DNA from: Steroidobacteraceae bacterium
Lineage (GTDB): Bacteria > Pseudomonadota > Gammaproteobacteria > Steroidobacterales > Steroidobacteraceae
Direction: 5' to 3'
Assembly: GCA_035995425.1 (NCBI GenBank)
Contig: DASYKM010000173.1
Span: 101,875 to 165,874 of the forward strand
DNA length: 64,000 nt
The position numbers were made by a program, and so were the translations under genes. This document shows positions 8,368 through 30,534 of this stretch, in pieces. The notes beneath the pieces were generated by a model. The model made no database searches. It was not told the origin of the DNA and saw nothing but the letters and a program-made list of their open reading frames with translations. The first letter of the stretch is position 1. Each line of letters begins with the position of its first letter.

Positions 8368-8430
8368 CGTCGCGAGGCGTGCTTTCATCCGCGCCGGGCA
8401 CGGATGCCAATGGGACGCGAGCGCAGCGCG

Positions 8431-9261
8431 ATGAAAAAGGAATTGGTGATCACCAGCGACGATCTCGGTATGACCCTCAGTGTCAACCAGGGCGTCGACA
8501 AGGCGCGCGAGCTGGGCGCGCTCACCAGCACCAACGTCATGGTGCCTTGTCCCTGGTTCGAGCACGCCGCGGTGCTCTTCCGCGATTCGGCCATCGACGT
8601 GGGCGTTCATTTCACGCTGACCTGCGAATGGACCCACTACAAGTGGCGGCCGCTCACGCGCGCGCCTTCCCTGCTCGATCGGGCCGGAGTCATGTATCGC
8701 ACCGTGTTCGATCTGATGACCCATGCGAATGCCGAAGACATTCGCGGTGAATGCCGCGCGCAGATCGAAACCGCGCTGCGGCGCGGGCTGCCGATAGGCT
8801 ATGCCGACGTGCACATGTGCATCCCGGTGGTGGAAGAATCCGCGGGCGCCTCGCGCATTGCGAACCCGGACTACGAGCTCGCACTCATGAATATCGTCGG
8901 CGGTGTCGCCCGTGAGTTCGGGTTGCCCTATCCCTATGCGCTCAAGGGCGAACGTCTCGAGCACTTCCGCTCCGCCTTGTCCATTTCCGGCAAGGGGCGT
9001 GATGCGATAGAGCGATACATCGGCTCGCTCGAGCCGGGCATTCACCATCTGAGCTGCCATTGCGCCATCGATTCGGAGGAGCAGAGCAATCTATCGGACG
9101 CTTCCGCCGCGGAATATCCGTGGTCTCTGCAGTATCGAGCTGATGACCTGCAATGCATCACGTCGCCGTGGTTCCGGAATTTGCTGGCCGTGCACGAGGT
9201 GCGCCTGGTGCGCATGCCATTTGGCGGGCGGCCCGCCGTTTCGAGTGTCACCGCGTCGTGA
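8431..9261 (+). CDS. YdjC / ChbG / HpnK-family carbohydrate deacetylase
   Basis: 'MKKELVITSDDLGMT' is the characteristic YdjC N-terminus. Upstream ATGs at 8404 and 8410 are also possible starts. Confidence 0.75.
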   Translation: MKKELVITSDDLGMTLSVNQGVDKARELGALTSTNVMVPCPWFEHAAVLFRDSAIDVGVHFTLTCEWTHYKWRPLTRAPSLLDRAGVMYRTVFDLMTHANAEDIRGECRAQIETALRRGLPIGYADVHMCIPVVEESAGASRIANPDYELALMNIVGGVAREFGLPYPYALKGERLEHFRSALSISGKGRDAIERYIGSLEPGIHHLSCHCAIDSEEQSNLSDASAAEYPWSLQYRADDLQCITSPWFRNLLAVHEVRLVRMPFGGRPAVSSVTAS

Positions 9262-15793: not shown

Positions 15794-15957
15794 ATGCGAC
15801 GTCGGTCCTGACGGTGCTCTTCAACAAGGGCGTACACGTCTCGACGCAGGACGACGAGCTCGTCATCGATGCGCCGAAAGGCGCGCTGCAGGCCGAGGAC
15901 GTCATGTTGATACGCGAGCATCGCGACGACATCGTCGACCTGCTGCGCCAGATCAAG
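15790..15957 (+). other. TubC_N-like NRPS docking domain
   Basis: 'VLTVLFNKGVHVSTQDDELVIDAPKGALQAEDVMLIREHRDDIVDLL' fits the pattern L..L...Gv.l..eGd.L.v.aP.gaL...l...l..hk..l..lL. Confidence 0.6.
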
Positions 15958-18900
15958 ATGCAGCGCGAGGCCGCCACCCCCGTGATCAGCGTGCAGCACG
16001 ACGGCCACGCGGCGTTGTCGGACATCCAGCAGAACGTGCTGCTCATGGAGGGCATGGCGCCGTCGATACCCTACGGGAACATCCCGCTGGCCTTCATGAT
16101 CGAGGGCGCGCTCGATCGAGCGGCGCTCGGCAAATCGCTGGACGCAGTCATTTCGATGCACGAAATCCTGCGCACCACGTATGTGGTCCGAGGCGATCGC
16201 ACCGTGCAGCAGATCGCGCCGGCGTCGTCGTTGCCGCTCGCTTTCACGGACTTTGCGCTCGAGCCCGACACAGAGGCCAGGATCGAAGCCGCGTTGCGCC
16301 AGCACGAGGCGCGACACTTCGACCTCGCCAGGGAATTGCCGGTGCGTGCCATGCTGTTGCGGCTCGCGCCTGGGCGTTACGTGCTCAGCCTGGTGTTTCA
16401 CCAGGTGGCGATGGATGGCCACAGCTGCCAGTTGTTCGTGCGCTACCTGTCCGAGACCTACGCGCGGATAGCGGCCGGTTCTGGCGAATCGCCGGCGGCG
16501 TTCGCCGGGCATCAATACGTGGACTTCGCCGATTGGCAGCGGCGCAGCGAGAAATCGCCTAACTATCGCCAGGCAGTGGCGTTCTGGAAAGACTCACTGG
16601 CCGGCGCTCCGGCGCTGCACGGCATACCCGGCGATTTCCTGCGGCCCGCGATCCAGACGTTCGCCGGCAGGACGCTCGCGACGGAGCTGGCGGCGCAGGA
16701 CCTTGCCCGCATCGAGCAGTTCGCGCGCGATCATGAAACCAGCGTATTCACCGTGCTGCAGGCGGCGTTCGCGCTGCTGGTGGCGCGCTACAGCGACTGT
16801 CACGATGTCGTGATCGGTACGGCCGTGGCGAATCGCACGCGCCGCGAATTCTTCGGCACGCTCGGCAACCTCGTGAACACGCTCGCGTTCCGCTTCGATC
16901 TCGAAGCGCCGCGGACTTTTGCCGGCCTGGTCGAGCACGCGAAACAGGTCATCGACCGCGCGATGCAGAACCAGCAGGTGCCGTTCAACGTGATCGTGGA
17001 CCAGGTGCGCCCCGCGCGCAGCTTCTCGCACAACCCGCTGGTGCAGCTCATGCTGGTCATCCAGGAAGAAGAGCAGACGCAGCTCTGCCTCGCCGGTACC
17101 ACCGTGACGCCGATGTTTCGCGATCCCGGCGTCGCCAAATTCGACCTGACACTGCACGTGTACAAACAAAGTGGCGGCGCGGCGCTGCGCTGGGAATTCA
17201 ACACCGCGCTGTTCCGCGACAACACGGTGACGAGGTTCGCGCGCCATTTCCAGGAACTGCTGCTGCGATGTATCGCCAGTCCGGAATACGACCTTGCGCA
17301 GTTGCCGCTGCGGGTGGACCGGGCGACGGGCCACGGTGCGCCCGAGGCCAGCGATTTCCCCGCGCCGGTGTGCATACACGATCTCATCGCGCGGCAGGTG
17401 CGCGAGACGCCGCTGAATATCGCGATCGCTGATGCGCACGGGCATCTCACCTACGCGGAGCTGGAAGCACAGGCCGAGAGAGTGGCATCGCACCTTCGCG
17501 CCCATCGTCCACGTGACCAGGAGTTCCGTGTCGCGATTTTCTGCGAACGTTCCGCACGGCTCGTCGTGGCTCTCTACGCGACGCTCAAGGCGGGCGGCGT
17601 CTACGTGCCGCTCGATCCGGCGTATCCGGAGGCGCGCATCGGATTCATGCTCGAGGATTCCGGCGCATCGCTGGTTCTCGGCGACGGCAGCGCACCGCAG
17701 ACCACATTGCCGGTGCTCGATCTGGCGGCGCTGTTGGCGGCCGAGGTGTCGACGCCGGCCGTTCAAACCACCGCCGCCGATTCCGCGTACGTCATCTACA
17801 CCTCGGGCTCTACCGGCAAACCCAAGGGCGTACTCGTATCGCATCGCAGTCTTTTCCACTCGCTGTCAGCCAACAAGGCGCTGATGCGGTTTGACGCATC
17901 GGATGAGATTCCCTGTCTCGGCTCTCAGGCTTTTGGCATTTCGCTGCTGGAGATCCTGCTGCCGCTCGTGAGCGGCGCCTGCGTGCGCATGCTCGCCCGC
18001 GATGCGATCCGCGATCTCGATCTGCTGATCTCGTCCACGCAGGACGCGACCATCCTGCACGCGGTGCCGAGCCTCATGTCGCGATGGCTGGAGCGGGTCG
18101 TGGAGCAGGGTGGCGGCGGCTATGAAAAGCTGCGCCTGCTGCTGGTCGGTGGCGAATCGGTCGCCGACGATCTGTTGCGCGCGATTCGCGCCTGGCGCCC
18201 GGACGTGGAGCTGATCGAGCTCTATGGCATGACCGAATCGGCCGTGGTCTGCGCCAGCTATCGCCCGGGCGCGAATTACTCCGCGCACTATTGCATCGGC
18301 AAGCCGCATCCCACGGCGAGCTTCTACGTCCTCAATCGTCATCTGCAGCAGCAGCCACCCGGCGTGCCCGGCGAGCTGCACATCGGCGGATTGAGTCTCG
18401 CGTCGGGATATCTCAATCAGCCGGAGCTCACCGCGCAGAAATTCATCCCCCATCCGTTCGCGACCGGCGAGCGCCTCTACAAGACGGGCGATCGCGTACG
18501 GCTGCTGCACGACGGACAGTTCGAGTTCCTCGGGCGCGTCGACCACCAGGTGAGTCTGCGCGGCGTGCGCATCGAGCCCGGCGAGATCGAAGCGCTGCTG
18601 GCGGCGCACGGCGACGTCAAGAAGGCCGTGGCGCACGTGGTCAAACTACCCAACGGCGAAGCGACGCTGGTCGCCTACTACACCACCGGCGAGCCGCCGG
18701 CCGACATCGCCACCCTCAACGAATCGTTGCGCGGGCACCTGTCGCGCTATCTGCCCGACTACATGCGGCCCACGTTGTACCAGCACCTGTCGGCGCTGCC
18801 GCTCAATCCCAACGGCAAGGTGGATCGCAACGCGTTGCCGATGCCGGTGGCCCATGTACGCGACGCGCCCCCCGAAACGCCGGCGGAGCGGCAGCTCGGC

Positions 18901-19170
18901 CATCTGTGGTGTTCGCTGCTCGGAATCGAAGTCGCGGGCGTCGAGGACAACTTCTTCGAGCTGGGCGGCAATTCGCTGCTGGGTACCCAGCTCATCGTCC
19001 AGGCGGAGAAACTTTTCGGCATCGAGCTGCCGGTGACTGCGCTGTTCGAGTCGCCCACGGTGCGCCAGCTGGCGAAGGTCGTCGATCAGAAGCTGCAACT
19101 TCGCGCCGTGTCGATGCTGATGTACGAAGCCCCCGGGCAGGCGGTGGCGACGAACGAGATGTTGATATGA
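15790..19170 (+). CDS. NRPS elongation module: N-terminal docking domain-C-A-T
   Basis: ATG overlaps the upstream TGA (ATGA). C3 motif reads 'FHQVAMDGHS' (16399-16419). A3 'SAYVIYTSGSTGKPKG', A5 'ELYGMTE', A7 'GELHIGGLSLASGYL', 'YKTGDRV', A10 'NGKVDRNAL', PCP 'LGGNSL' (Ser codon 18973-18975). Confidence 0.9.
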   Translation: MNATSVLTVLFNKGVHVSTQDDELVIDAPKGALQAEDVMLIREHRDDIVDLLRQIKMQREAATPVISVQHDGHAALSDIQQNVLLMEGMAPSIPYGNIPLAFMIEGALDRAALGKSLDAVISMHEILRTTYVVRGDRTVQQIAPASSLPLAFTDFALEPDTEARIEAALRQHEARHFDLARELPVRAMLLRLAPGRYVLSLVFHQVAMDGHSCQLFVRYLSETYARIAAGSGESPAAFAGHQYVDFADWQRRSEKSPNYRQAVAFWKDSLAGAPALHGIPGDFLRPAIQTFAGRTLATELAAQDLARIEQFARDHETSVFTVLQAAFALLVARYSDCHDVVIGTAVANRTRREFFGTLGNLVNTLAFRFDLEAPRTFAGLVEHAKQVIDRAMQNQQVPFNVIVDQVRPARSFSHNPLVQLMLVIQEEEQTQLCLAGTTVTPMFRDPGVAKFDLTLHVYKQSGGAALRWEFNTALFRDNTVTRFARHFQELLLRCIASPEYDLAQLPLRVDRATGHGAPEASDFPAPVCIHDLIARQVRETPLNIAIADAHGHLTYAELEAQAERVASHLRAHRPRDQEFRVAIFCERSARLVVALYATLKAGGVYVPLDPAYPEARIGFMLEDSGASLVLGDGSAPQTTLPVLDLAALLAAEVSTPAVQTTAADSAYVIYTSGSTGKPKGVLVSHRSLFHSLSANKALMRFDASDEIPCLGSQAFGISLLEILLPLVSGACVRMLARDAIRDLDLLISSTQDATILHAVPSLMSRWLERVVEQGGGGYEKLRLLLVGGESVADDLLRAIRAWRPDVELIELYGMTESAVVCASYRPGANYSAHYCIGKPHPTASFYVLNRHLQQQPPGVPGELHIGGLSLASGYLNQPELTAQKFIPHPFATGERLYKTGDRVRLLHDGQFEFLGRVDHQVSLRGVRIEPGEIEALLAAHGDVKKAVAHVVKLPNGEATLVAYYTTGEPPADIATLNESLRGHLSRYLPDYMRPTLYQHLSALPLNPNGKVDRNALPMPVAHVRDAPPETPAERQLGHLWCSLLGIEVAGVEDNFFELGGNSLLGTQLIVQAEKLFGIELPVTALFESPTVRQLAKVVDQKLQLRAVSMLMYEAPGQAVATNEMLI

Positions 19171-20906
19171 ACGACAGCCATGTGAAAACCGGGCGCCTCA
19201 CGCTCACGCGCCTGATCCTGCAGAGCTCGCCCAAGCTGCTGTGGTCTTCACTGACGCTCAGTCTCGTCGCCGGTATCTGCTACAGCCTGATCATCCCGTT
19301 CCTCATGCACGGCATCGGACCGGGCGGCATGCTCGATCCGGCGGCGCGCGCACAGGGGTGGCTCGCGGAAAATTTCGCCGTCCTGTTCTTCACGCTGTGC
19401 CTGGTCACCTTCGGCGCCAAGGCGATGTCGCTGATCCTCGTCACGTACCTGGTCAAGGATCTCGCCGCGGACATGCGCATCCGCCTGTGCCGCAAGATCA
19501 ATCGCGCCAGCGTGCAGGACATCGATACCTTCGGCATGGCCCGCCTCACGAACATCCTCGTCGAGGACATCGGGCGCGTGAGCTTTGCGGCGGTTTGCCT
19601 GCCCATGGTCGCGGTGCAGGTGACCACGGTCACCGGGATGCTCGTCTATCTCGCGTGGCTCGACTGGCGCGTGTTCCTGTGCGCCGTGGCGGTGATCGTC
19701 GGCGGGTTGTTCCTCAATCGCATTCCGCTGCGCATTTCGCTCGGCTACATGGAACAGTCGCGCCGCATTCGCGACCAGGTGCAGGGCGGCGTCAAGGGCA
19801 TCGTGTTCGGCGCGTACGAGCTCAAGCTCGCACGCGAGAAGTCCGAACAGTTCCTCGAGCAGGAGGTCGTCGGCCCGGAGCTGAAGGCCGCGCGCATCGA
19901 CAAGATCGCCGATACCTACCTGCACGTCGCCGGCAGCTTCGTGGAGCTGATCTCGTTCTTCGTCATCGGCCTCGTGGCATTCGTGCTGCCGCGCTACTTC
20001 AGCTTCCAGCTCACCGACATCTACGCCATCGTCATGGCGCTGCTGTACGTCATGTTGCCGATCATGATGGCCTACATGTTGCTGCCCAATATCCAGCGCG
20101 GCTCGGTGGCGCTGGCGCAGATCGAAGAGCTCGAGGCGCTCATCGAAGAACCGGTGGCGGGCGAGCCCATCGGTGCGTGGTCCACCTTCGAAGTGCGCAA
20201 CCTGCAGTATCGATATCACAATGCCGCGGAGCCCGGTGAGGGCTTCCGCCTGCAGCCCATCACGCTGCGCTTTCGCCGGGGCGAGGTGGTATTCGTGGTC
20301 GGCGGCAATGGCTCGGGCAAATCGACGCTGAGCAAGCTCATCTCGCTGCACTACGCGGCCGAGTCCGGTGAGATCCGCTTCGATGACACGCGCGTCGGTC
20401 CGCACAACCTCGGCGCGGCGCGCGAGCAGATCGCGGTGATCTATTCGAACTACTATCTGTTCGAACGCGTGTATGGTCCGCTGGATTCCGCGCGCGAGGC
20501 CGCGATGCAGAAGTATCTGCAATTGTTCGGGTTGCAGGACAAGGTGCGGTTCGAAGCGGGCAGATTCTCCACCACCAAGCTCTCCGACGGCCAGCGGCGG
20601 CGCCTGGCGCTCGTGGTTGCGCTGCTCGACGATCGCCAGATCTATCTGCTCGACGAATGGGCGGCGGACCAGGATCCGGAGTTCCGCGAGATCTTCTACA
20701 CGCAAGTGCTGCAGCAGATGCGCGCCGACGGCAAGCTGGTCATCGTGATCACGCACGACGACCGCTACTTCCATCACGCCGATCGCGTGGTGGTCATGGA
20801 ATTCGGCGGCGTGCGCCAGGAAACGCAGCGGCAGCACGGCCCGGCGCCGCTGCCGCGCAGCTTCGGCACTTCGCAGGCCCATGGGCCGGTCGCGTTGCAG
20901 TCATGA
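19167..20906 (+). CDS. cyclic-peptide / siderophore-type ABC exporter (SyrD / PvdE / YojI family, fused TMD-NBD)
   Basis: ATG overlaps the NRPS2 TGA. Six-helix TMD, Walker A 'GGNGSGKST', signature 'LSDGQRRRL', family-typical 'LLDEWAADQDPEFR'. Confidence 0.85.
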   Translation: MNDSHVKTGRLTLTRLILQSSPKLLWSSLTLSLVAGICYSLIIPFLMHGIGPGGMLDPAARAQGWLAENFAVLFFTLCLVTFGAKAMSLILVTYLVKDLAADMRIRLCRKINRASVQDIDTFGMARLTNILVEDIGRVSFAAVCLPMVAVQVTTVTGMLVYLAWLDWRVFLCAVAVIVGGLFLNRIPLRISLGYMEQSRRIRDQVQGGVKGIVFGAYELKLAREKSEQFLEQEVVGPELKAARIDKIADTYLHVAGSFVELISFFVIGLVAFVLPRYFSFQLTDIYAIVMALLYVMLPIMMAYMLLPNIQRGSVALAQIEELEALIEEPVAGEPIGAWSTFEVRNLQYRYHNAAEPGEGFRLQPITLRFRRGEVVFVVGGNGSGKSTLSKLISLHYAAESGEIRFDDTRVGPHNLGAAREQIAVIYSNYYLFERVYGPLDSAREAAMQKYLQLFGLQDKVRFEAGRFSTTKLSDGQRRRLALVVALLDDRQIYLLDEWAADQDPEFREIFYTQVLQQMRADGKLVIVITHDDRYFHHADRVVVMEFGGVRQETQRQHGPAPLPRSFGTSQAHGPVALQS

Positions 20907-21082
20907 ACGCCGAAGCAGCCGGACGCGCTGACGTTGCCGACGTGATCGCGCAGTGCGCGCGCTCCGGCGTGCGCATGTCGGTCGACGGCGAGCAGTTGCG
21001 CCTGCAACTGCCGCAGGGTGGCATAGCACCCGCGCTGGTCTCGCTGATCCGGGAGAACAAGTCCGGTCTGATCCGGGCGCTC
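20903..21082 (+). other. TubC_N-like NRPS docking domain
   Basis: 'VADVIAQCARSGVRMSVDGEQLRLQLPQGGIAPALVSLIRENKSGLIRAL' has the same pattern as the NRPS2 N-terminus. Confidence 0.6.
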
Positions 21083-24000
21083 ACCGCCGTCAATGCCAGC
21101 GTCGCGAGACTCGCTCCGCCGCCGATGAAACGCGCGGCGCACGCGGGACGCCTGCCACTCGCCTACGGCCAGGAGAATCTGTGGCTGGGCGAGGAGCTGG
21201 CCGAGGTGGGCGACATGTCGCACCTCACCGTGGTCGTGAAGCTCCAGGGCACGGTGGATGTCGGTGCGCTGAAATCGGCGATTGCTTTCATCATCGAGCG
21301 ACACGCGCCGCTGCGAACCCGGTACCCGGAAGCGGCGGACGGAAGACCGTATCAGGAAGTGCTTTCCGCGGACGATACGCCCTTCGAATCGCTCGATCGG
21401 TCGGGCGCGGCGCCGCAGGTCATCGAGACCCTGTTAGGCGAGCTGCACCGGCGGCGTTTCTGGCTCAAAGACGGATTTCCTTGCCGCAGCACGCTCATCC
21501 GGCTCGCGAACGAGCAGCACATCTTCGTTTTCACGACGCATCACATCTGCTCCGATGGATGGTCGATCGGCGTGCTGCTGCGGGAGATCGGCGAGTGCTA
21601 CAACGCCGTCGCCCGGGGCCGCGCGCCGTCATGCCCGCCGCTCGAGATCGAATATTCCGATTACGCACTGTGGCAGAAGGACGCGGAAGAGTCGGCGTGG
21701 TTCGGCGCGGGACTGCGGTACTGGAAGGAGCGGCTCAAGGATCCGCCGGCGCTGCATGGCCTGCCTCTCGACCGGCCGCGACCGACGGTTCAGTCGTATG
21801 CGACGGCTCGCGTGAGCCACGACATCGATGTCGCCACCCTGCGGCGGCTCGAGACCTTCGCGCGCGCGCAAGGCACGACCTTGTTCGTCGTGCTGATGAG
21901 TGCCTTCGGAATGCTGGTGCATCGCTACAGTGGTGACGAAGACATGATCGTCGGCACGCCGATCGCCAACCGGCTGCGCGACGAGATGTCCCCGCTCGTC
22001 GGACTCTTCATGAACGTGCTGGCGATGCGGCTGCGCATCCAGGCCGCCGACACGGGTGCGGACTTCATCGCGCGCACGCATGCGCACTATCTGCGCGACA
22101 TCGAGCACCAGGGCATCCCCATCGAGCGCGTGGCGGTCGAGGTGGCGCGCGAGTCGAAGGCCTCGAGCCATGCACCACTCGCGCAATTGTCGTTCGTGCT
22201 GCACAACAACGTCGTCGCCGAAGTATCCATGCAGGGTCTCCAGTGCCGCACGGAGTTCACGCTGCCGGGCGCGTCGGTCTATGAGCTCAACGTGTCCGCG
22301 CACGAGACGGCACAGGGACTGCATTTCGACTGGCAGTACAACACCGGCATTTTCGACCCGGACCGCATCGGCCGCATGGCCGCGCACTTCGCCTCTCTGC
22401 TGCGCGATCTGCTGAAGTCGCCGCGCAAGCGCGTCGGCCAGCTGCGGATGATCTCCGACGAAGAGCAGGCGGCGTTGCTCACGCTCGGCAACGACAGTGC
22501 GACGCCGTACGCGCCCGAAGTGGCGTTCCACGAATTGTTCGAAGCGCGTGCCGCGAGCGACCCGCGCAAGATCGCGGTGATCTGCGGCGAGCAGCGCCTC
22601 GACTACGATGCGCTGAACCGGCGCGCGAACCAGCTCGCGCACTGGCTGCGCGCGAGCGGCCGCGCGCAGGCGGATCTGCCCATCGGCGTGAGCCTCGAGC
22701 GCTCGGCGGACATGCTGGTGGCGCTGCTCGCGGTGGTGAAGGCCGGAGCCGCCTATCTACCGCTCGATCCGGCGTATCCCGCGGCACGGCTGGCCCACAT
22801 GGCCGGCCACGCCGGGGTGCGCACCGTGATTGCCTCGCGTGCCACCGCGGCGGGGGTCGGCGATCCGGCGGCGGCGGTACTGCTCGACGACGGCAGCTTC
22901 CGCGCGGTGCTCGAAGCGCAGCCGGACACCAATCCCTCGGCCACGACGGGCTGGCAGGGCGGCAACCGCCTCGCCTACGTGATCTACACCTCGGGATCCA
23001 CGGGTCAGCCGAAAGGCGTGATGATCGAGCATCGCAGCCTCACCAATTTCCTGCGTTCGATGCAGAAGGAACCGGGAATTCACACGGACGACGTGATGCT
23101 CGCTGTGACCACGCCGTCGTTCGACATCCACACCCTCGAGCTCTTCGCGCCGCTCGTGAGCGGTGCCACGGTGGTGATCGCCGGGCCCGGCGAATATGCC
23201 GATCCCGCCGAGCTCGCACGCCTCATCGACACGCACGCGGTATCCGTGGTCCAGGCCACGCCCACGACCTGGCTCGGGCTCATGGATTACGGCTGGTCGC
23301 CGCAGCGGGATCTCAAGGCCTTGTGTGGCGGGGAGGCGCTGCCCGAAGCGCTCCGGGACAAACTACTCGCGCGGCCACTGCTCGCGCTGTGGAACATGTA
23401 CGGACCCACCGAGACCTGCGTATGGTCGGCGGTCAAGCGCATCGAGAAAGACGTGGTGATCGGCCGGCCGATCGCCAACACCCGCTTCTACGTGCTCGAC
23501 CGCGAGCTGGCGCCGGTACCCATCGGCGTCGACGGCGATCTCTATATCGCGGGCGACGGCCTGGCACGCGGCTATCTGCATCAGCCCGAGCTCACGGCCG
23601 GGGCATTTCCGACGACGCTGCCGGCGTCGCTGCCGGAACAGCGCCTCTACAAGACTGGCGATCGGGTGTGCCGGCGCGCCGATGGCGACCTGGTCTTTCG
23701 CGGGCGGCAGGACCACCAGGTCAAGGTCAACGGCTTCCGCATCGAAACGGCGGAGGTGGCGGCCGCGCTCGAGACGCTGCCCGGCGTCAAACAAGCTGCC
23801 GTGGTTGTCAGGCAGCGCGCCAACGGCGCGTCATTTCTGGCGGCGTTCGTGGTGACTGATGGCGACGCGTGGTCGGCACGGGTGCTCGGCGCGCAACTGC
23901 AGATGCTGCTGCCACGCTACATGATTCCCGCGGTCATCGAGCGCCTGGAGCGCCTGCCACACACCGCGAACGGCAAGCTGGATTTGAAACAACTGGGCGC

Positions 24001-25663
24001 GCGTCCGCTGCAGACGCCGGAATTCGCCGCGGCGCAGTCCGTGGAGCTGCCGCAAACATCCGTCGAGCGTGCGATCGCCTCGGCGTGGACCGATCTGCTC
24101 GGCGTGCAAAGCCTCACGCTCGATGACGATGTGTTCGCGCACGGCGCCGACTCCATCCGCGTGCTCATGTTCATCGGGCGCATGCGCAAGCAAGGCCTGA
24201 AACTGCGGGTCGGCGACATCTATCGCCTGCCGACCGTGCGCGCGCTGGCCGGCATCGCCGAGCAGGTCGGCGATGACAGCGGTCGGTCGCTGTATTCCGG
24301 CCCGGCGCCGCTGCTCGCCGACCAGCTCGCGGCGCTCGGCAATGAGTTCGTGTGGCGCAAGTTCTTCATCAACTTCATGTTCGACCTGCCGCGGCCATTG
24401 GACCTCGCGATCCTGCAGCGTGCGTTCGAGCGGCTCGCCGGTACGCACGACGCCTTGCGCGCGCGACTCACGCGGACCGATGGCCGGTGGCGACAGCACA
24501 TTGCAGCGGAATGCGACCAGCCGGCGGTGTTTGCCGAGACCCTGGGCTGCGGTTGGCTCGAGGCGCAGGCGCCCGATGAGATCCGTGCCGCCACCGATCG
24601 TGTGCACGCGCGTCTGTCTATCGAGCAAGGGCCGCTGTCCTGCGCGGCCGAGATCGTCGACTCGCAGGGCGTGCGCAAGCTGCTGTTCTGCGTGAGCCAC
24701 CTCGTGGCGGACGGATTTTCCACCGTGGTGCTGCTCGAAGACCTCATCGAGGCCTACGCGGCGTTGCGAGCCGGTGCGCAGCCAGCGTCAGCCAACACCC
24801 TATCTATCGGCAAGTGGGCGCCGCTCTATCGTGAGTACGTGAGCTCCGCGGCGTTCTGCGCGCAGATTGCCTACTGGGAAGCGCTGCCGTGGAGCAGGTG
24901 CGCACCGTTGCCGCTCGATTATCCGCAGAACGATACGCCGCAGATCAACGTGGCGCATTCCTCCCAGCACACCGGACTGCAACTCGACGCCGCCTCGAGC
25001 CAGGCGGTACATCTCGATGTGCCGCGACAGCTCGGGATCACGGCGCGGAACTTCATCGCCATCGCGCTCGCGCGCGTGCTCATGCGCTGGAACGGAGCCG
25101 ATGCGGTGGCGCTCGACATCCACGACGCGGGGCGCCAGCACGTTCAGGACGCGCTCGGAATCGATCTGTCGCGGACCGTCGGCGCGTTCTCGATTCGCAA
25201 CCGCGTGCTGCTCGAGCGCGTGCCGGCCGCCGATGCACAGCGCGAGCTCCTGGAAATGCACCAGCAACTCGAGCTCATTCCGCAGGGCGGGGCGGGCCTG
25301 CTGCCGCTGCAGGTGGCCTGCGAACGTGAAGAGGTGGCCGAGCGGGCGCGCCGGATTCCGAAGGCCGAGGTGTGGTTCAACTATCTCGGGACTGTCAACG
25401 ACACGCTGTCGGCGCACGAGCGCGCCGATGCCGATATTCCCACGCGCATGTCCGAGGCCGTCCGCCACATCCAGGGCGTTACGCACGACCCGCGGACGCC
25501 GCGCGAGCGGACGCTGAGTCTCCTCGGCTTCGTCAGGAATGGCGTGCTCGAGCTCAGTTTCGAATACAGCGCGCAATTGCATCGCGAGGAAACCATCCGC
25601 GAGCTGGCGCAGCAGCTGCGCGTCGAGATGATGAACACACTGCGTGCCGTCGGCGCGATTTAG
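20903..25663 (+). CDS. NRPS termination module: docking-C-A(Gly-like)-T-terminal C domain
   Basis: ATG overlaps the exporter TGA. C3 'THHICSDGWS'. A3 'LAYVIYTSGSTGQPKG', A5 'NMYGPTE', A7 'GDLYIAGDGLARGYL', A10 'NGKLD'. PCP 'HGADSI' (Ser codon 24152-24154). Second C-like domain with 'SHLVADGFS'. No TE or R domain. Confidence 0.9.
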   Translation: MNAEAAGRADVADVIAQCARSGVRMSVDGEQLRLQLPQGGIAPALVSLIRENKSGLIRALTAVNASVARLAPPPMKRAAHAGRLPLAYGQENLWLGEELAEVGDMSHLTVVVKLQGTVDVGALKSAIAFIIERHAPLRTRYPEAADGRPYQEVLSADDTPFESLDRSGAAPQVIETLLGELHRRRFWLKDGFPCRSTLIRLANEQHIFVFTTHHICSDGWSIGVLLREIGECYNAVARGRAPSCPPLEIEYSDYALWQKDAEESAWFGAGLRYWKERLKDPPALHGLPLDRPRPTVQSYATARVSHDIDVATLRRLETFARAQGTTLFVVLMSAFGMLVHRYSGDEDMIVGTPIANRLRDEMSPLVGLFMNVLAMRLRIQAADTGADFIARTHAHYLRDIEHQGIPIERVAVEVARESKASSHAPLAQLSFVLHNNVVAEVSMQGLQCRTEFTLPGASVYELNVSAHETAQGLHFDWQYNTGIFDPDRIGRMAAHFASLLRDLLKSPRKRVGQLRMISDEEQAALLTLGNDSATPYAPEVAFHELFEARAASDPRKIAVICGEQRLDYDALNRRANQLAHWLRASGRAQADLPIGVSLERSADMLVALLAVVKAGAAYLPLDPAYPAARLAHMAGHAGVRTVIASRATAAGVGDPAAAVLLDDGSFRAVLEAQPDTNPSATTGWQGGNRLAYVIYTSGSTGQPKGVMIEHRSLTNFLRSMQKEPGIHTDDVMLAVTTPSFDIHTLELFAPLVSGATVVIAGPGEYADPAELARLIDTHAVSVVQATPTTWLGLMDYGWSPQRDLKALCGGEALPEALRDKLLARPLLALWNMYGPTETCVWSAVKRIEKDVVIGRPIANTRFYVLDRELAPVPIGVDGDLYIAGDGLARGYLHQPELTAGAFPTTLPASLPEQRLYKTGDRVCRRADGDLVFRGRQDHQVKVNGFRIETAEVAAALETLPGVKQAAVVVRQRANGASFLAAFVVTDGDAWSARVLGAQLQMLLPRYMIPAVIERLERLPHTANGKLDLKQLGARPLQTPEFAAAQSVELPQTSVERAIASAWTDLLGVQSLTLDDDVFAHGADSIRVLMFIGRMRKQGLKLRVGDIYRLPTVRALAGIAEQVGDDSGRSLYSGPAPLLADQLAALGNEFVWRKFFINFMFDLPRPLDLAILQRAFERLAGTHDALRARLTRTDGRWRQHIAAECDQPAVFAETLGCGWLEAQAPDEIRAATDRVHARLSIEQGPLSCAAEIVDSQGVRKLLFCVSHLVADGFSTVVLLEDLIEAYAALRAGAQPASANTLSIGKWAPLYREYVSSAAFCAQIAYWEALPWSRCAPLPLDYPQNDTPQINVAHSSQHTGLQLDAASSQAVHLDVPRQLGITARNFIAIALARVLMRWNGADAVALDIHDAGRQHVQDALGIDLSRTVGAFSIRNRVLLERVPAADAQRELLEMHQQLELIPQGGAGLLPLQVACEREEVAERARRIPKAEVWFNYLGTVNDTLSAHERADADIPTRMSEAVRHIQGVTHDPRTPRERTLSLLGFVRNGVLELSFEYSAQLHREETIRELAQQLRVEMMNTLRAVGAI
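24305..25660 (+). other. terminal condensation-like (CT-type) domain, approximate bounds
   Basis: About 450 aa after the last PCP. The active-site motif is SHxxxDG ('VSHLVADGFS', 24695-24715) rather than HHxxxDG. Confidence 0.7.
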
Positions 25664-25671: not shown

Positions 25672-27702
25672 ATGGCGACCGGGCAACCTCTCGAATACGA
25701 ACGTCTGATCGTGCCGCGCGCGCGCCGGAAAGCCTCCGGGCCCGCGCGTGCCACGATTCTCAAGACTGCGCTCACGCGCCTCGACTATCACGGCCTCAGG
25801 AAGGTGGATGTCGACACCGGCACCGGCAGTCCGCGCTTCGAGCCGCAGAGCGCGCCCGACCTGCTGACCGTGTGCCTCACGGCCTATAACGAAGAGGTCT
25901 CCGCCTATCACACCTCGCTGAGCGCGCTGGCGCGCGGCGCGGACTATTTCGTCGGCGCGGGCGAGCCGCGCATCGGCCAGGAGTTCACCATCTGCATCCT
26001 GGTCGATGGCATCGAGCGCATGTCGGCGGGCTTTGCGGCCTATGCCCAGCGGCTGGGCATCTATCAACCGGCGCTGCTCGATCCGCGCGCCGACTATCAC
26101 CTGTTCGAGTCGTCCATCGACCGTCACCTGCTGCAGTTCGCGCCGCAGGACCTGCCGGCGCAGGGCGATCACGAAGCCGCGCTGCGCCGCGAGGCCGGCA
26201 ATCTCACCAATCTCACGCCGGAGGCGAATCGCCAGCGCATCGTGCTGTTCATCAAGCGCGATAACCGCGGCAAGCTCGATTCGCACCGCTGTTTTTTCGA
26301 GATCGCCTGCCGGGAAACGCGGCCGGCGTACTTCCTGCAGGTCGACGTGGGTACCAGCCCCGACGCGAGCGCGGTGCACGAGATGTGGCGCAGCATCGCG
26401 CACTCGGCCAACGTCGCCGCCGTCTCGGCGCGTTCGCACATGCCGTTGCCGCAGGGCGCCACCGACTTGTTAGGGTCGTGGCAATACGGTGACATCGCCA
26501 TCGAGCGCATCCTGCTCTGGCCCACCGAGATGCTCATGGGCTACATGAGCGTGCTGTCGGGACAGTTGTGCCTCACACGCAGCGATGCGGTGTGGCGCAA
26601 GCAGCCGGTTGCACCGGCGGCGAACGACGAGTTCGCCGCGCCACCGCCCGCCAACGGGCGCGTCATGCAGAGCTATCTACGCGGGCTGGAGCAGCTCGGA
26701 CCGTTCGAATCGAACATGTTCCTGGCCGAGGACCGCATCCTCGGGCTCGAGATCGTGTTTCAGCCGGACAGCCGTTGGGAGCTCGGTTACGTTCCGCAGG
26801 CGAACGCGGCCATCGACAAGTGCGAAAGCTGGAACGAGTTGCTGTGCCAGCGCCGCCGCTGGAAATGCAGCAGCGTTGCCTGCCGCCTGTGGATGTTCAC
26901 GCGCGTGCTCGACTACGCGCGAAGCGCCAACCGCACGCTGCCGCAGAAGCTGCGCATTCTTTCGGCCACCAGCTTTCACGCCGCGTATTTCCTCATCGAG
27001 TGGCTGATGCCGGCGTTCGCGGTGCTCATCTTCTCGTCGTTGCATCACTTCGCCGCCCTGGCCGTCGGCGCGGGCGGCCCATGGCGCGCGCTGGTAGATG
27101 CGAGCTTCTTCGGGCTGCTGGCGCTGCTTGGCACGCAGCTGGCGGTGTCGGCGTCGGGGCGGATCACGGCGGCCACCAATCGCTTCTATGGATTCTCGAT
27201 CGCCTGCCAGACGCTCTACACCTTGTGCATGACGGCGCTGGTGATCGGTGGCAACCTGCATGTAGCGGCGATCGTGAAGCCCCTGACATTGCTGGCCGTG
27301 ATGTTAGTCGCGGTCCTGGTTCTCGCGCATGGTTACGCGCGCGAGGTGTTTCGCGGCCTGCTGCGCTGCCTGGTCACGTACTGGACGTCGCGCCCCGCGG
27401 TGTCTTTCCTGATCATGACTTATGCGGCGCTCAACTCGCACAACACCAGCTGGGGGACCAAGGGACTGACGCGTCCGCACTACCTCGACGAGGCCGTGCG
27501 GGCGGGGTTCGAACACTTCCGTCTCAAGACCGTGTTGCTGATGGTCGCCGCCAACGCGGGTTTCTATACGCTCGCCGTACGCGGCGGGTGGACCACGTCG
27601 TTCGCGGGGCTCGAGAGCGTGTTGTGGCTGCTGCTCGCACAGATCGGCGTGGCGTTCATCGGGCGCTTCGTCATCGCGTTGCGGAATCACAGGGCGTCCT
27701 GA
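25672..27702 (+). CDS. chitin synthase homologue (GT2, eukaryotic division-1 Chitin_synth_1-like)
   Basis: ATG lies 9 nt after the NRPS3 stop. 'CLTAYNEE', 'ICILVDGIE', 'KRDNRGKLDSHRCFF', 'LQVDVGT', 'SVLSGQLCLTR', 'NMFLAEDRILGLEIV' (EDR 26728-26736), 'QRRRW' (26848-26862). Multi-helix C-terminal region with 'NTSWGTKG' (27448-27465). Confidence 0.8.
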   Translation: MATGQPLEYERLIVPRARRKASGPARATILKTALTRLDYHGLRKVDVDTGTGSPRFEPQSAPDLLTVCLTAYNEEVSAYHTSLSALARGADYFVGAGEPRIGQEFTICILVDGIERMSAGFAAYAQRLGIYQPALLDPRADYHLFESSIDRHLLQFAPQDLPAQGDHEAALRREAGNLTNLTPEANRQRIVLFIKRDNRGKLDSHRCFFEIACRETRPAYFLQVDVGTSPDASAVHEMWRSIAHSANVAAVSARSHMPLPQGATDLLGSWQYGDIAIERILLWPTEMLMGYMSVLSGQLCLTRSDAVWRKQPVAPAANDEFAAPPPANGRVMQSYLRGLEQLGPFESNMFLAEDRILGLEIVFQPDSRWELGYVPQANAAIDKCESWNELLCQRRRWKCSSVACRLWMFTRVLDYARSANRTLPQKLRILSATSFHAAYFLIEWLMPAFAVLIFSSLHHFAALAVGAGGPWRALVDASFFGLLALLGTQLAVSASGRITAATNRFYGFSIACQTLYTLCMTALVIGGNLHVAAIVKPLTLLAVMLVAVLVLAHGYAREVFRGLLRCLVTYWTSRPAVSFLIMTYAALNSHNTSWGTKGLTRPHYLDEAVRAGFEHFRLKTVLLMVAANAGFYTLAVRGGWTTSFAGLESVLWLLLAQIGVAFIGRFVIALRNHRAS

Positions 27703-27706: not shown

Positions 27707-28207
27707 ATGCAAGCGAACGCCATGACCGACATGCTCGTGCGGCTCTACGACCTGCCGCCCGTGGAGCCGATGCTGGCCGACTTCGCCGCACACGGCATCA
27801 CGGTCCGGCGGCCGCGCGCCTATGAGAAGAGCCTCGTGGTCGAGTGGGTCGCCAAGACCTTCAGCGCCGGCTGGGCGAGCGAATGCGACGTCTGCTTCGC
27901 GCGGGTTCCGGTGTCCGCCCACATCGCCACGCGCGACGGCGAGATCATCGGCTTTGCCTGCCACGAGAGCACGTACCGCAACTTCTTCGGTCCGGTCGGA
28001 GTGCTCGAGGAGTACCGCGCCGACGGGCTCGGCAAGTGCCTGCTGCTCGCGAGCCTGCACGCCATGCGCGACCTTGGCTATGCCTACGCCATCATCGGCG
28101 GACCCACGGATGCCGTGGGCTTCTACGTCCAGGCGGTCGGCGCGTCGCGCATCGACGGATCGAGCCCGGGCATCTACGTGGACCGTTTGCGCGGCTCGGA
28201 TAGCTAG
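27707..28207 (+). CDS. GNAT-family N-acetyltransferase
   Basis: Starts 5 nt after the CHS stop; ATG at 27722 is an alternative. GNAT core 'GPVGVLEEYRADGLGKCLLLASLHAMRDLGYAYAII'. Confidence 0.7.
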   Translation: MQANAMTDMLVRLYDLPPVEPMLADFAAHGITVRRPRAYEKSLVVEWVAKTFSAGWASECDVCFARVPVSAHIATRDGEIIGFACHESTYRNFFGPVGVLEEYRADGLGKCLLLASLHAMRDLGYAYAIIGGPTDAVGFYVQAVGASRIDGSSPGIYVDRLRGSDS

Positions 28208-28219: not shown

Positions 28220-29224
28220 ATGCCCTCAACACCCCAGGCCGTCGACGTGCTCGACCGCATCGATCGCTGCACCTATCTCGAGCAGTACCGGTTTCGCAAG
28301 CCGTTCCTGCTGCGCGGCGGCGCGACGCACCTGCCCGCGTATCGCAAGTGGACGCTGGAATATCTCGAGAGCCAGATCGCCGACGTCATCATCCAGCCGC
28401 TGATCTATGAAGAAGACAAGCGCGACTATTCGCGGGCGAAATTCCTCGAGATGACGTTCCGTGATTTCGCGCGCGAGATCCGCTCCAGTAACTCGCGCAT
28501 GCTCTATTGGTTCGAGGGCCCCGCGTCGGCGAATTTCTGGGGCGGTGCGGGCAAGCAGGCGCGCGTGAACACCGAGCTCGCCATGCTCGCTGCCGATTTC
28601 GCGCCGCCGACGTTCCTGCACGAATCCGAGCTCATCTACGCGCAGATGATCCTCGGCACCGGCAAGAACGGCACCGTGGTCCACCACGACTACGGCGGCG
28701 AAGCGAAATGCCTGATGCAGCTCATTGGCGAGAAGCACGTGCTCCTCATCCCGCCGCAGCACGGGCGGGCGCTCAAGCTGCATCCGATCACCGGGCAGAA
28801 GAACTTCACCATCAGTACCCTCGACCTGCGCGGCGGCGACTTCAGGGCCATTGCCGACGATGCGCCGCTGTTCGAGGCGCGCATCCGCCCCGGTGATGTG
28901 CTGTATTGGCCGTCATTCTGGCTGCACGACGTCGCCAACGAAGGCGCGATCAACTTCGCGATCACCGTGCCGGTCGACGAGATGCCCGTGAACGCGCTCA
29001 TGTTGCGGCACCTGCTGGCCGAGAATCTGTCGCGACTTCGGCAGCTCGATCCGCAGCTGCGCATCTCGAGCGACGCGATTGCGCAGCTCGAGCAGGAGCT
29101 GCTCGATCACACCAGCGTCAACACGCTGTGGGATCTGCATACCGCCTCGATTGCCTATCGCGGCAAGCACTGGCGGCCGCGCCAGGAGCCGGAGATGACC
29201 GCGATCGCGGAACCCGCCGGTTGA
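28220..29224 (+). CDS. JmjC / cupin_8-type Fe(II)/2-oxoglutarate oxygenase-like protein
   Basis: 'FRKPFLLRGGATHLPAYRKWTLEYL'. HxD in 'TVVHHDYGG', 'LIGEKHVLLIPP', distal His in 'GDVLYWPSFWLHDV'. Confidence 0.7.
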   Translation: MPSTPQAVDVLDRIDRCTYLEQYRFRKPFLLRGGATHLPAYRKWTLEYLESQIADVIIQPLIYEEDKRDYSRAKFLEMTFRDFAREIRSSNSRMLYWFEGPASANFWGGAGKQARVNTELAMLAADFAPPTFLHESELIYAQMILGTGKNGTVVHHDYGGEAKCLMQLIGEKHVLLIPPQHGRALKLHPITGQKNFTISTLDLRGGDFRAIADDAPLFEARIRPGDVLYWPSFWLHDVANEGAINFAITVPVDEMPVNALMLRHLLAENLSRLRQLDPQLRISSDAIAQLEQELLDHTSVNTLWDLHTASIAYRGKHWRPRQEPEMTAIAEPAG

Positions 29225-29228: not shown

Positions 29229-30428
29229 TTACGGGCTCGCCGCCACGCGACGACGCATCACTTCATCGAAGATGTCGATCGCCGTGCTGGCGCGGTGCTG
29301 CGCCGCGTTCGCCGTGACGAACAATCCCACGTTGTTCGCCGGCGAGAACCAGGCCTTGGCGTACCACAGCTCGTTGGTGCCGGCGTGGTAGTAAACGACG
29401 CCGGGTAGCGGACCGAACTGCTGCTGCCACCAGCCGAGGGCGTAGTTTGCCGCTACCACCTGATGCAGGGTGTGGAACGACTCGACGCTGAGCAGGCCCG
29501 GAACGCCGCGCTCGCCTTCGATGTGCGCCATGAGGTAGCGCGCGTAGTCTGCGAGCGTGGTGTGGACGCCGGCCGCCGGCGCCACCGCCTTGGGAAAGTC
29601 CGCACCCGGGCCGACCGGTATCGGTTTGAATCCCGAATTCGTGTCGTTGTGCCCCAGTGGCTCATCGAGCGCGCCCGGCGTGCCGGGCGGACCGAAGCCA
29701 CTGTGCGTCATGCCGAGCGGCGCGTACACGCGGGTAGATAGCAGCGTTTCCCACGGCGTGCCGGTGCGTGCTTCGAGCATCGCGCCGGCCACCACGTAGC
29801 CCATGTTCGAATAGTTCCAGGTGCCGACCGGGAAGTCGGGCTTGCTCGACAGCAATTGCTCGGCCCATCGGCGGCGCTTCTCCATCAAGGTGCCGGAGGC
29901 CGCGTCCTTGACGAAATCCGGTTCGCCGCTGAAGGGCAGGCCTGCCGTGTGCGAGAGCAGCTGGCTCAGGGTCACGCCGCGAAGGTCCGCGTGCATGCTC
30001 GCGCTCCATTCCGGCCACACCTCGCTCGTGGTGGTGTCCCAGCCGATGGCGCCATCTTCCACCAGCACCGCGGCCAGCGTCGCCGTCATTGCCTTCGTGA
30101 CCGAGCCGACGATCCACTGATCCGAGGTCGTCACCAGCACCGCGGCATCGGCCGAGCGTTTGCCCACCGCGGTGAGCTCGGCCACCTGCCCGTTGCGCAC
30201 CAGCACCGCGCTCATGCCGGGAATCTCCTGCGAGGCGCGCGCCCATTCGAGCAACTCGGCCATTCGTCCGTCGCCGACGATTCCCGCGGGCGGCGCGGTG
30301 GACACCGGCAGAGGAGTGCGTCCTTCGCCGTCGATGGAGTTGTGATCGTTACCGCCACCGCCGCCGCAGGCGGCGAGTGTGAGGGCGGCTGCGATGGCAG
30401 GAAGTCGGAGCGGGCGCTTGGTGTGCAT
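29229..30428 (-). CDS. serine hydrolase, beta-lactamase-family lipoprotein
   Basis: Start taken at MHTKRPLRLPAIAAALTLAACGG (lipobox). S-x-x-K 'GSVTKAMT'. Convergent with the JmjC gene, 4 nt apart. Confidence 0.75.
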   Translation of the reverse strand: MHTKRPLRLPAIAAALTLAACGGGGGNDHNSIDGEGRTPLPVSTAPPAGIVGDGRMAELLEWARASQEIPGMSAVLVRNGQVAELTAVGKRSADAAVLVTTSDQWIVGSVTKAMTATLAAVLVEDGAIGWDTTTSEVWPEWSASMHADLRGVTLSQLLSHTAGLPFSGEPDFVKDAASGTLMEKRRRWAEQLLSSKPDFPVGTWNYSNMGYVVAGAMLEARTGTPWETLLSTRVYAPLGMTHSGFGPPGTPGALDEPLGHNDTNSGFKPIPVGPGADFPKAVAPAAGVHTTLADYARYLMAHIEGERGVPGLLSVESFHTLHQVVAANYALGWWQQQFGPLPGVVYYHAGTNELWYAKAWFSPANNVGLFVTANAAQHRASTAIDIFDEVMRRRVAASP

Positions 30429-30534
30429 CGATCCCCCGGAGTGCGTCACTGTTAGTGGTCTCTGGGTCGGAAAATCCTTCGCGATGAATCCTCACACTGG
30501 CGGCACCGATCGCTAGAATCGCGGCTCACCGCCC

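Follow-up and report, generated by a model that had tools for sequence, protein, structure and literature searches.

Chitin synthases are textbook cell-wall enzymes of eukaryotes. The Nod-factor pathway, in which NodC, NodB, NodA and NodIJ act together with the decorating enzymes NodH, NodS and NodL, yields lipo-chitooligosaccharides. The first division-1 chitin synthases in bacteria were described by Goncalves et al. 2016 (BMC Evol Biol 16:252, PMC5122149) from about a dozen organisms, mainly plant-pathogenic Enterobacterales, together with two Cellvibrionaceae, one Pseudomonas and one Agrobacterium. In that study the bacterial proteins are monophyletic, have a short N terminus and lack the Chitin_synth_1N domain; most of the genes belong to an operon of the order DUF1800-DUF1501-synthase-epimerase, and those from Teredinibacter turnerae and from Cellvibrio mixtus lie within secondary-metabolism clusters. 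The authors proposed that the bacterial enzymes make a chitin exopolysaccharide or chito-oligosaccharides. The T. turnerae clusters had been listed without products (Yang 2009). Goncalves 2016 is a comparative study; our full-text literature searches turned up no functional study or assay of a bacterial chitin synthase, no characterized product and no paper tying a chitin synthase or a YdjC protein to the product of a nonribosomal peptide synthetase (NRPS). Here we analyze a stretch of 64,000 nucleotides from a Steroidobacteraceae bacterium (GCA_035995425.1, contig DASYKM010000173.1, positions 101,875 to 165,874), referred to as a whole as the window, in which an intact gene for a fungal-type division-1 chitin synthase lies inside a bacterial NRPS operon. 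An earlier note on this DNA, made from its letters, had described such enzymes as rare in bacteria and not a known part of NRPS pathways. The pathway is indeed uncharacterized, whereas bacterial division-1 synthases and their link to secondary metabolism have been known since 2016 (PMC5122149).

The gene that is the subject of this analysis is the following:

25672..27702, plus strand, chitin synthase homologue of 676 amino acids

Its translation is free of stops and consists of a family-2 glycosyltransferase (GT2) catalytic domain, at approximately residues 60–400, followed by long helices. The stop-to-stop frame extends back to a GTG at 25372, but we prefer the ATG at 25672, because it is preceded by the Shine–Dalgarno-like stretch GGGGAA and because the homologues have lengths of 676–690 amino acids. 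The NCBI entry that is 100% identical to the protein is annotated as "hypothetical protein VGO61_14240" (Steroidobacteraceae bacterium) and is encoded on a 186-kb contig. The sequence blocks that the earlier note had likened to those of fungal division-1 enzymes are all present and in the order given there: CLTAYNEE at residues 68–75, ICILVDGIE at 107–115, KRDNRGKLDSHRCFF at 195–209, LQVDVGT at 222–228, SVLSGQLCLTR at 293–303, SNMFLAEDRILGLEIV at 347–362, QRRRW at 393–397 (nucleotides 26848–26862) and SWGTKG at 593–598 (nucleotides 27448–27465). An EDR motif is encoded at nucleotides 26728–26736. In HMMER alignments the quoted blocks pair with their counterparts in Candida Chs2 (7stl) and in Phytophthora Chs1 (7wjm), as had been supposed.

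Profile searches place the protein among the chitin synthases. Chitin_synth_1 (PF01644; gathering score 25) matches with 60.2 bits (E 3e-16), spanning profile positions 2–162 of 163, and the same domain is precomputed in all 30 other homologues among the matches listed. Chitin_synth_2 falls just under its cut-off, at 26.7 vs 27, and the Pfam scan returned no other family at E ≤ 1, including Glyco_tranf_2_3 / Glyco_trans_2_3. NCBIfam holds no model of its own for the synthase, the best hit being a 17-bit match to PgaC/IcaA. A NodC-type assignment is disfavored both by the absence of any generic GT2 Pfam match at E ≤ 1 and by length, 676 residues vs ~400–450. The Pfam domain Chitin_synth_1N (PF08407) likewise has no match in the synthase, in which the GT core is preceded by only ~60 residues. 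The lack of this domain speaks against the label "eukaryotic chitin synthase" only and not against a bacterial division-1 enzyme, since it is a hallmark of the bacterial subclade (PMC5122149).

Searched with phmmer against all sequences of the PDB, the protein gave six matches, all of them chitin synthases (E 3e-25 to 3e-22), namely Candida albicans Chs2, Phytophthora sojae Chs1 and Saccharomyces cerevisiae Chs1. We then relied on an alignment of 19 bacterial synthase homologues, in which the NE motif, the DxD-type VDVGT, EDR, QRRRW and WGTKG show no variation; the catalytic motifs are unchanged in homologues down to 25% identity. The profile built from this alignment matches the solved chitin synthases near full length with E values of 5e-85 to 4e-75, while the next family in the PDB, hyaluronan synthase, reaches only E ~0.09 and the cellulose synthase BcsA is absent from the matches.

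An AlphaFold2 model computed from the same alignment (mean predicted local distance difference test score 82, predicted template-modeling score 0.81) has a GT-A-type α/β domain and eight to nine long helices, a bundle that presumably spans the membrane. When the model was compared with the PDB by Foldseek, the top 20 structures were all chitin synthases, with template-modeling (TM) scores of 0.72–0.76 and E values of 1e-28 to 1e-23. Other GT2 enzymes scored far lower: most hyaluronan synthases at or below 0.34 (best 0.38), plant CesA at ~0.33 and BcsA at or below 0.30. The placement relative to NodC, HasA and BcsA rests on this ranking by profile and fold against the PDB rather than on an outgroup tree. 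Neither measure groups the protein with NodC- or cellulose-synthase-like GT2s, and the core of the earlier reading, a division-1 chitin synthase instead of a generic GT2, is upheld. By sequence and modeled fold, the protein is a division-1 chitin synthase homologue that retains all catalytic and channel motifs, with chitin synthase activity as the predicted function.

The same data bear on the idea that a eukaryote-to-bacterium transfer has left a decaying or functionless passenger here, or that the gene is a generic GT2 that merely resembles a chitin synthase. Its weak points of annotation, namely the "hypothetical protein" label, the lone 17-bit PgaC/IcaA hit in NCBIfam and the narrowly missed Chitin_synth_2 threshold, would fit such an idea. 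Against it stand the intact frame, the invariance of the catalytic motifs across distant homologues, and a placement with chitin synthases, in sequence and fold, that leaves hyaluronan synthases and BcsA tens of orders of magnitude behind. The family is also large. A full-library profile search recovered 639 family representatives at E ≤ 1e-30, the best 150 of which are nearly all 590–700 amino acids long, and the proteins of this size form at least ~140 distinct clusters at 50% identity. The gene has a guanine-plus-cytosine (GC) content of 66% vs 65–68% for its flanks. We consider the passenger idea very improbable. We also rejected assignment to a generic GT2, NodC, poly-N-acetylglucosamine (PNAG) synthase or cellulose synthase, for which there is no Pfam match and for which the PgaC hit is weak and the hyaluronan synthases and BcsA rank far behind, as well as a recent foreign island, since the GC content is even, at 64–68%, over 0–36 kb of the window. 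A few family members are over-long: P0054 has 2326 residues with four matched stretches, P0102, P0113 and P0156 have 950–1120, and L016 (Pectobacterium) has 1026, a length that agrees with the aminotransferase fusion reported in Goncalves 2016.

The operon that contains the synthase gene comprises these features, the last of which closes it:

12806..15793, plus strand, NRPS1, a loading module with an adenylation (A) domain interrupted by a methyltransferase (MT), then a thiolation (T) domain (Pfam AMP-binding, Methyltransf_12, PP-binding)
15790..19170, plus strand, NRPS2, with docking domain, condensation (C) domain (HQVAMDG), A domain (GILHLGLVVK) and T domain (Pfam, motifs)
19167..20906, plus strand, ABC exporter with permease fused to ATPase, of the cyclic-peptide exporter family (TIGR01194, 342.7 bits vs cut-off 286.2)
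20903..25663, plus strand, NRPS3, 1586 amino acids, with docking domain, C domain (HHICSDG), A domain (DILQLGMVWK), T domain and epimerization-like (E-like) domain (Pfam, motifs)
24257..25660, plus strand, terminal condensation-superfamily, E-like domain of NRPS3, which abuts the synthase gene (Pfam Condensation, 111 bits)
27707..28207, plus strand, small GNAT acyltransferase, 166 amino acids (Pfam Acetyltransf_1, 26.8 bits)
28220..29224, plus strand, Cupin_8 / JmjC-type Fe(II)/2-oxoglutarate oxygenase (Pfam Cupin_8, 89 bits)
29229..30449, minus strand, convergent beta-lactamase-family gene (annotation)

The assembly line has the modular organization A(MT)-T, C-A-T, C-A-T-E-like with TubC_N docking domains, and Pfam finds no thioesterase domain in it. 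The genes are tightly packed, as had been claimed for the junctions on either side of the synthase. The stop codon of NRPS3 (TAG, 25661–25663) is separated by 8 nucleotides from the ATG at 25672, and the synthase stop (TGA, 27700–27702) by 4 nucleotides from the GNAT ATG at 27707; farther upstream, stop and start codons overlap as ATGA at three junctions (15790, 19167 and 20903), and the gap from GNAT to Cupin_8 is 12 nucleotides. No promoter-like site was found within the operon, the sole one lying downstream at 30491–30519, and terminator-like sites show no excess (9 vs a shuffle expectation of 10.8). With tight gaps and no promoter-like site of its own, the synthase gene is probably co-transcribed with the assembly line, as the earlier note had suggested. 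The longer open reading frames (ORFs) called mechanically for two of the genes are wrong: NRPS3 starts at 20903 and not 20657, and NRPS1 at 12806, with a GGAGAAGGGG ribosome-binding site, and not 12212. Both extensions (20657–20902 and 12212–12805, ~80 and ~200 amino acids) were rejected because they are Arg/Ala-rich high-GC read-through.

The NRPS1 A domain carries the code DAFTIAAVWK, which is aromatic, Phe-like. NRPS2 departs from the usual motifs in both of its catalytic domains. In its C domain the second histidine of HHxxxDG is replaced by glutamine (HQxxxDG), a change kept in the relatives L003, L006, L019 and L021; its A domain lacks Asp235, the residue that binds the α-amine, with a code of the form G[I/V]L[S/H]LGLV[V/C]K shared with L006, L019 and L021 (that of L003 was not extractable), and has ELYGMTES where NxYGPTE is usual. 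The missing Asp235 suggests a building block without a normal α-amino group. A hydroxamate siderophore cluster, considered in view of the flavoprotein, GNAT and NRPS genes, is not supported, as the window has no K_oxygenase or IucB-type match and no receptor; a TonB receptor occurs in L001 only. We likewise set aside a self-resistance decoy for a chitin synthase inhibitor on grounds of logic, since the producer would not itself possess a chitin synthase in need of protection.

To place the arrangement in context, loci (L numbers) were collected by a scan of one genome per species, which gave 18, and by exact-protein look-ups, which added 11 more places; they were annotated with precomputed Pfam matches, added Pfam scans and tblastn with the window proteins. 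The survey that the earlier note had recommended shows synthase homologues beside NRPS genes repeatedly. L021/L002 repeat the window operon gene for gene, and L019 does so without the Cupin_8 gene. In L025 the available sequence begins within NRPS2 and the gene after GNAT differs from that of the window. The synthases of these loci share 64–67% identity with ours. At 54–56% identity, L020 and L026 contain genes for an MBOAT protein, an unknown protein, YdjC, a flavoprotein, the synthase, a free C-superfamily protein, GNAT and Cupin_8, and in L020 large NRPS genes lie on the flanks of this set.

The more distant relatives vary the theme. L003, L006 (Cellvibrionaceae) and L029 run through NRPS, ABC, an NRPS that ends in an E-like domain, synthase, YdjC, flavoprotein, FkbM methyltransferase and GNAT, followed by Acyl_transf_3 and Cupin_8. 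The Cellvibrionaceae isolate 1162T.S.0a.05 (L004) has synthase, YdjC, flavoprotein, two sulfotransferases, penicillin amidase, ABC and NRPS, and L005 and L027 have synthase, YdjC, a GT2 and a type II thioesterase. A two-module NRPS with an E-like domain runs straight into the synthase gene in L007 and L008, and the contig of family member P0018 shows ABC, a 3111-residue NRPS with an E-like domain, and synthase. Genes for sugar-type tailoring that bring Nod decorations to mind recur in the form of the sulfotransferases of L004, Acyl_transf_3 in L006 and L029, a second GT2 in L005, L020 and L027, and a GlcNAc (N-acetylglucosamine) 2-epimerase in L001. The best conserved protein of the set is GNAT, at 60–75% identity, with orthologues in L002, L003, L006, L019, L020 and L021. 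Cupin_8 orthologues share 48–75% identity (L002, L004, L006, L020 and L021) and those of the flavoprotein 29–48%, the latter adjoining the synthase gene in L001, L003, L004, L006 and L020. YdjC directly adjoins the synthase gene in relatives. No NRPS, YdjC, GNAT or Cupin_8 homologue lies within 10 kb of the synthase in Nostoc, Tolypothrix, Bacteroidota, Pectobacterium or Dickeya; the contexts in Pectobacterium, Dickeya and P0028 are of the DUF1800-DUF1501 type.

In a neighbor-joining tree built from 176 members of the family, every NRPS-linked synthase belongs to one clade of 31 tips, with a bootstrap value of 87 of 100 and inner nodes of 99 and 100. The window synthase groups with those of the Cellvibrionaceae loci L003–L008 (bootstrap 87–99), and the Pectobacterium and Dickeya synthases (L016–L018) lie outside the NRPS clade, within a wider group of bacterial-size proteins. 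Six eukaryote-size sequences formed no single split, so that rooting against eukaryotes is not rigorous. As judged from these gene neighborhoods and the tree, the NRPS link is systematic, extending through one clade across Steroidobacterales and Cellvibrionales with a recurring gene set, and it is described here for the first time. Adjacency and the recurring gene set suggest that the synthase is an integral working part of a conserved NRPS cluster.

Two further observations concern the loci themselves. At L028, 509–4700, a family member of 29% identity that lies outside the NRPS clade forms an operon with a GT2 and a PMT_2-like protein, next to a block that resembles a mobile element (HTH_17, AAA_25); it adds a third kind of setting, of polysaccharide type, to those known for bacterial chitin synthases. 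When the ABC gene was translated out of frame (19241–20906), the product aligned to L002/L021 3564–5180 with 57% "identity" in the same wrong frame, which reflects DNA similarity only, and tblastn matches between related high-GC loci therefore call for a frame check.

One explanation for the linkage is that the cluster makes separate products that are only co-expressed, a free chitin or partly deacetylated chito-oligosaccharide, serving as exopolysaccharide, matrix or signal, and an independent peptide exported by the ABC transporter. The synthase keeps the complete channel architecture of polymer-extruding enzymes, the exporter belongs to a cyclic-peptide family, and the other bacterial synthases, of the DUF1800-DUF1501 and GT2/PMT_2 types, sit in non-NRPS, polysaccharide-like contexts; products of this kind are also what Goncalves 2016 proposed (PMC5122149). 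Separate products make it hard to explain the tight coupling to the NRPS and an adjacency of E-like domain and synthase that persists even when the two are carried as split genes (L020, L026). Moreover, an NRPS without thioesterase needs some release chemistry, and the NRPS linkage is clade-wide across two orders. We regard this explanation as unlikely, while giving it appreciable weight.

The domain that abuts the synthase gene offers a more specific clue. Its best PDB matches are PvdL, the TycA E domain (2xhg) and the GrsA E domain (5isw), and NCBIfam adds a TIGR01720 region, so that an ordinary condensation domain was rejected as its identity. The glutamate of the EGHGRE motif is catalytic in NRPS epimerization domains. 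In ten orthologues aligned with GrsA-E, SHxxxD is invariant and EGHGRE has become xDxGR, with the glutamate gone; the window domain reads SHLVADG, and IHDAGRQ instead of EGHGRE. A Gly-type code precedes the E-like domain in every orthologue (DILQLGMVWK in the window, DIL(Q/A)LG(M/L)V-K in the others), and epimerization after Gly would be pointless because the residue is achiral. With both features conserved in the orthologues, we reject a true epimerase, which these motifs make very unlikely. The E domains of TycA and GrsA remain the closest solved relatives and share the RTVG and FNYLG motifs with the window domain, which differs from them in having SH for HH and xDxGR for EGHGRE, in following a Gly-type module and in being able to stand alone. 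In L020 and L026 it is a separate protein of 475–477 amino acids encoded directly after the synthase gene (46.6% identity for L020). Since adjacency to the synthase is kept whether the domain is fused or free, and since there is no thioesterase, we infer that the E-like domain may be a release or transfer catalyst whose partner is the synthase or its product.

Upstream of the operon lie three genes of possible relevance to the sugar:

8404..9261, plus strand, YdjC-family carbohydrate deacetylase (ChbG chitooligosaccharide-deacetylase family; Pfam YdjC, 138.8 bits)
9270..10610, plus strand, FAD/NAD(P)-binding oxidoreductase (NAD_binding_9), with an alternative start ATG at 9153 (Pfam PF13454, 57 bits)
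10535..12079, minus strand, GH1 beta-glucosidase (Pfam GH1, 560 bits; TIGR03356, 621 bits)

The window YdjC shares 47% identity over 269 amino acids with that of L006 by tblastn; the NCBIfam models for carbohydrate and chitin-disaccharide deacetylases match it below their cut-offs, and its sequence contains no signal peptide. It is predicted to be a cytoplasmic sugar N-deacetylase. A minus-strand ORF of 384 codons at 7906–9060 was dismissed as spurious, as it has no Pfam match and the YdjC frame fits 8404–9261 instead. No PDB relative was found for the flavoprotein at 9270–10610, whose pairing with YdjC recurs in L020, L026 and L029. The GH1 gene sits between this pair and the NRPS operon and thereby separates YdjC from the operon. 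A 47%-identical GH1 gene is present in the Cellvibrionaceae cluster L003 at 19552–20835 on the minus strand. Its presence could be fortuitous or could reflect the processing of a glycoside within the pathway, and its membership of the cluster is uncertain. Directly upstream of the YdjC–flavoprotein pair are genes for an extracytoplasmic-function (ECF)-type sigma-70 factor with a SnoaL-like tail (6921–7808) and a carboxymuconolactone-decarboxylase-family protein (7828–8367). An ECF sigma gene adjoins the orthologous operon in L019 too, and the sigma factor of the window is a candidate regulator of the cluster.

By analogy with the Nod-factor pathway, we propose that the cluster yields a covalent conjugate of a peptide and a GlcNAc oligomer, a reading to which we give an even chance. 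The synthase would build a β-1,4-GlcNAc oligomer from UDP-GlcNAc at the inner membrane, and YdjC would strip one N-acetyl group from it and free a sugar amine. Meanwhile, the NRPS would assemble a short peptide from a methylated aromatic residue, an unusual unit without a normal α-amine, and Gly. The E-like domain, with its His and Asp kept, would then release the peptidyl-Gly thioester by amide formation with the sugar amine, such that the C-terminal glycyl carbonyl is amide-bonded to the deacetylated glucosamine. The flavoprotein, GNAT and JmjC oxygenase would tailor either moiety, and the product would leave through the ABC exporter or through the channel of the synthase. In a variant of this scheme, the E-like domain acylates glucosamine (GlcN) first and the resulting N-(peptidyl-glycyl)-GlcN, whose N-(peptidyl-glycyl) group is the least bulky peptide analogue of an N-acetyl group, would prime the synthase. 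This variant draws on yeast Chs2, which takes 2-acylamido GlcNAc analogues as primers (PMC4007471). Because chain extension by processive GT2s takes place at the non-reducing, cytoplasmic end, the peptide would sit either on the last-added residue, ending the chain as in Nod factors, or on a reducing-end primer.

Several points weigh against a conjugate of this kind. Our literature search found no product characterized for any member of the cluster family, and the window comes from an uncultured, metagenome-assembled genome. The proposed partners do not always travel together: L007 has an E-like domain and synthase with no YdjC within 10 kb, L004, L005 and L027 have synthase and YdjC with no adjacent E-like domain, and in the window itself YdjC lies 3.5 kb upstream of the operon, behind the opposite-strand GH1 gene. 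The synthase keeps its full helical bundle and WGTKG, features that in fungi serve polymer extrusion and not the cytosolic release of oligomers, and an exporter of the cyclic-peptide family implies that the peptide might leave the cell alone. The E-like domain could instead cyclize, hydrolyze or merely dock. Finally, the specificity codes were read against the GrsA sequence and the substrate calls are approximate; what we take to be the GrsA reference sequence returns the published PheA code, DAWTIAAICK, as a check.

The conserved oxygenase raises the alternative of direct glycosylation, in which the synthase would place one or a few GlcNAc units on a peptide hydroxyl, for example one introduced by Cupin_8, and thread the glycopeptide through its channel, leaving the E-like domain only to release or dock. 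The nearest PDB relatives of the Cupin_8 protein are JMJD5, JMJD7 and FIH, and this presumed hydroxylase of JmjC type is a core gene of the set. The X domain of glycopeptide NRPSs is a degenerate, C/E-like domain that recruits trans-acting enzymes, and the E-like domain could act similarly. To our knowledge, however, no chitin synthase glycosylates peptide hydroxyls, and direct glycosylation leaves the frequently adjacent YdjC without a role. The use of non-natural acceptors as primers by chitin synthases (PMC4007471) would be compatible with it. Overall, we judge direct glycosylation improbable. The two roles offered in the earlier note, an oligomer joined to the peptide and a glycosylated peptide, both stay in play, with the conjugate as our preferred reading.

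The surroundings of the cluster contain other genes of note. Its flanks encode two beta-lactamase-family serine hydrolases, a GH2 glycosidase and an FGE-sulfatase-family protein (29229–30449 on the minus strand, 5784–6860 plus, 30535–32406 plus and 32409–33395 minus). Farther downstream, an island at ~37700–43000 has a GC content of 52% vs ~64% elsewhere and encodes an AAA ATPase (37703–38986) and a 1119-residue AAA_16/STAND-like protein with TPR repeats (38944–42303). This island may be a horizontally acquired defense or signaling module.

The occurrence of the gene set in soil Steroidobacteraceae and in a marine order suggests an undescribed hybrid product of peptide and chitin sugar. That one subclade of synthases is a fixed component of NRPS clusters gives bacterial chitin synthases a first concrete, testable biochemical role. 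If the conjugate is real, peptides joined to GlcNAc oligomers would be a new class of hybrid products with potential as plant, fungal or animal signals or as antifungals, and the NRPS epimerase-like domain would gain a new catalytic use. A further gain would be a bacterial division-1 synthase of just 676 amino acids, whose expression for structural studies and inhibitor tests might prove simpler than that of the fungal enzymes. The broadest form of the proposal is that non-ribosomal peptidyl chito-oligosaccharides are a new product class, a peptide counterpart of Nod and Myc signals, made by a horizontally acquired eukaryote-type synthase and an E domain repurposed as an amino-sugar N-peptidyl transferase; we advance it tentatively, as somewhat more likely wrong than right. 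Such molecules could carry signals between kingdoms or act against fungi, for Steroidobacteraceae in soil and for Cellvibrionaceae in the sea. Should the synthase make free chitin only, the locus would still be a case of a gene of eukaryotic origin that has been taken up stably into the secondary metabolism of bacteria.

Compared with the solved fungal and oomycete synthases (7stl-7sto; 7xs6/8k3p-x; 7wjm), the window protein shares the GT2 core, EDR, QRRRW, (S)WGT(K/R)G and the transmembrane bundle, and its TM scores of 0.72–0.76 extend over ~700 aligned columns at an identity of just 18–20%. Those enzymes differ in having an N-terminal region of 300–450 amino acids (Chitin_synth_1N) and a role in the cell wall, whereas the window gene is part of an NRPS operon. 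The clade of Goncalves 2016 is closer, with the same short N terminus, the same lack of Chitin_synth_1N, the same Chitin_synth_1 core and a shared grouping with Cellvibrionaceae (L004 belongs to that clade). The published set contains no Steroidobacteraceae, and that study, which includes no functional tests, does not deal with the recurring association of the synthase with NRPS, E-like domain, YdjC, flavoprotein, GNAT and Cupin_8 genes. The window synthase is a new member of the bacterial clade and, as far as the genomes treated in the literature that we searched are concerned, its first from Steroidobacteraceae.

The likeness to the Nod pathway is one of logic. A GT2 that makes GlcNAc oligomers, a deacetylase, acyl transfer, ABC export and decoration by sulfo-, methyl- and acetyltransferases are all enzyme types found in the cluster family. 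Unlike in the Nod pathway, the deacetylase is YdjC and not the CE4 enzyme NodB, the donor would be an NRPS-bound peptide instead of a fatty acyl-ACP (acyl carrier protein), and no parts are orthologous beyond the GT2 superfamily; Pfam finds no match to the NodA or NodB families among the neighbor genes scanned. The cluster may work in the manner of the Nod pathway without belonging to it. The gene family and its bare link to secondary metabolism were already known, and the architecture of NRPS, E-like domain and YdjC is an uncharacterized variant of pathways of the acylated-chitooligosaccharide type.

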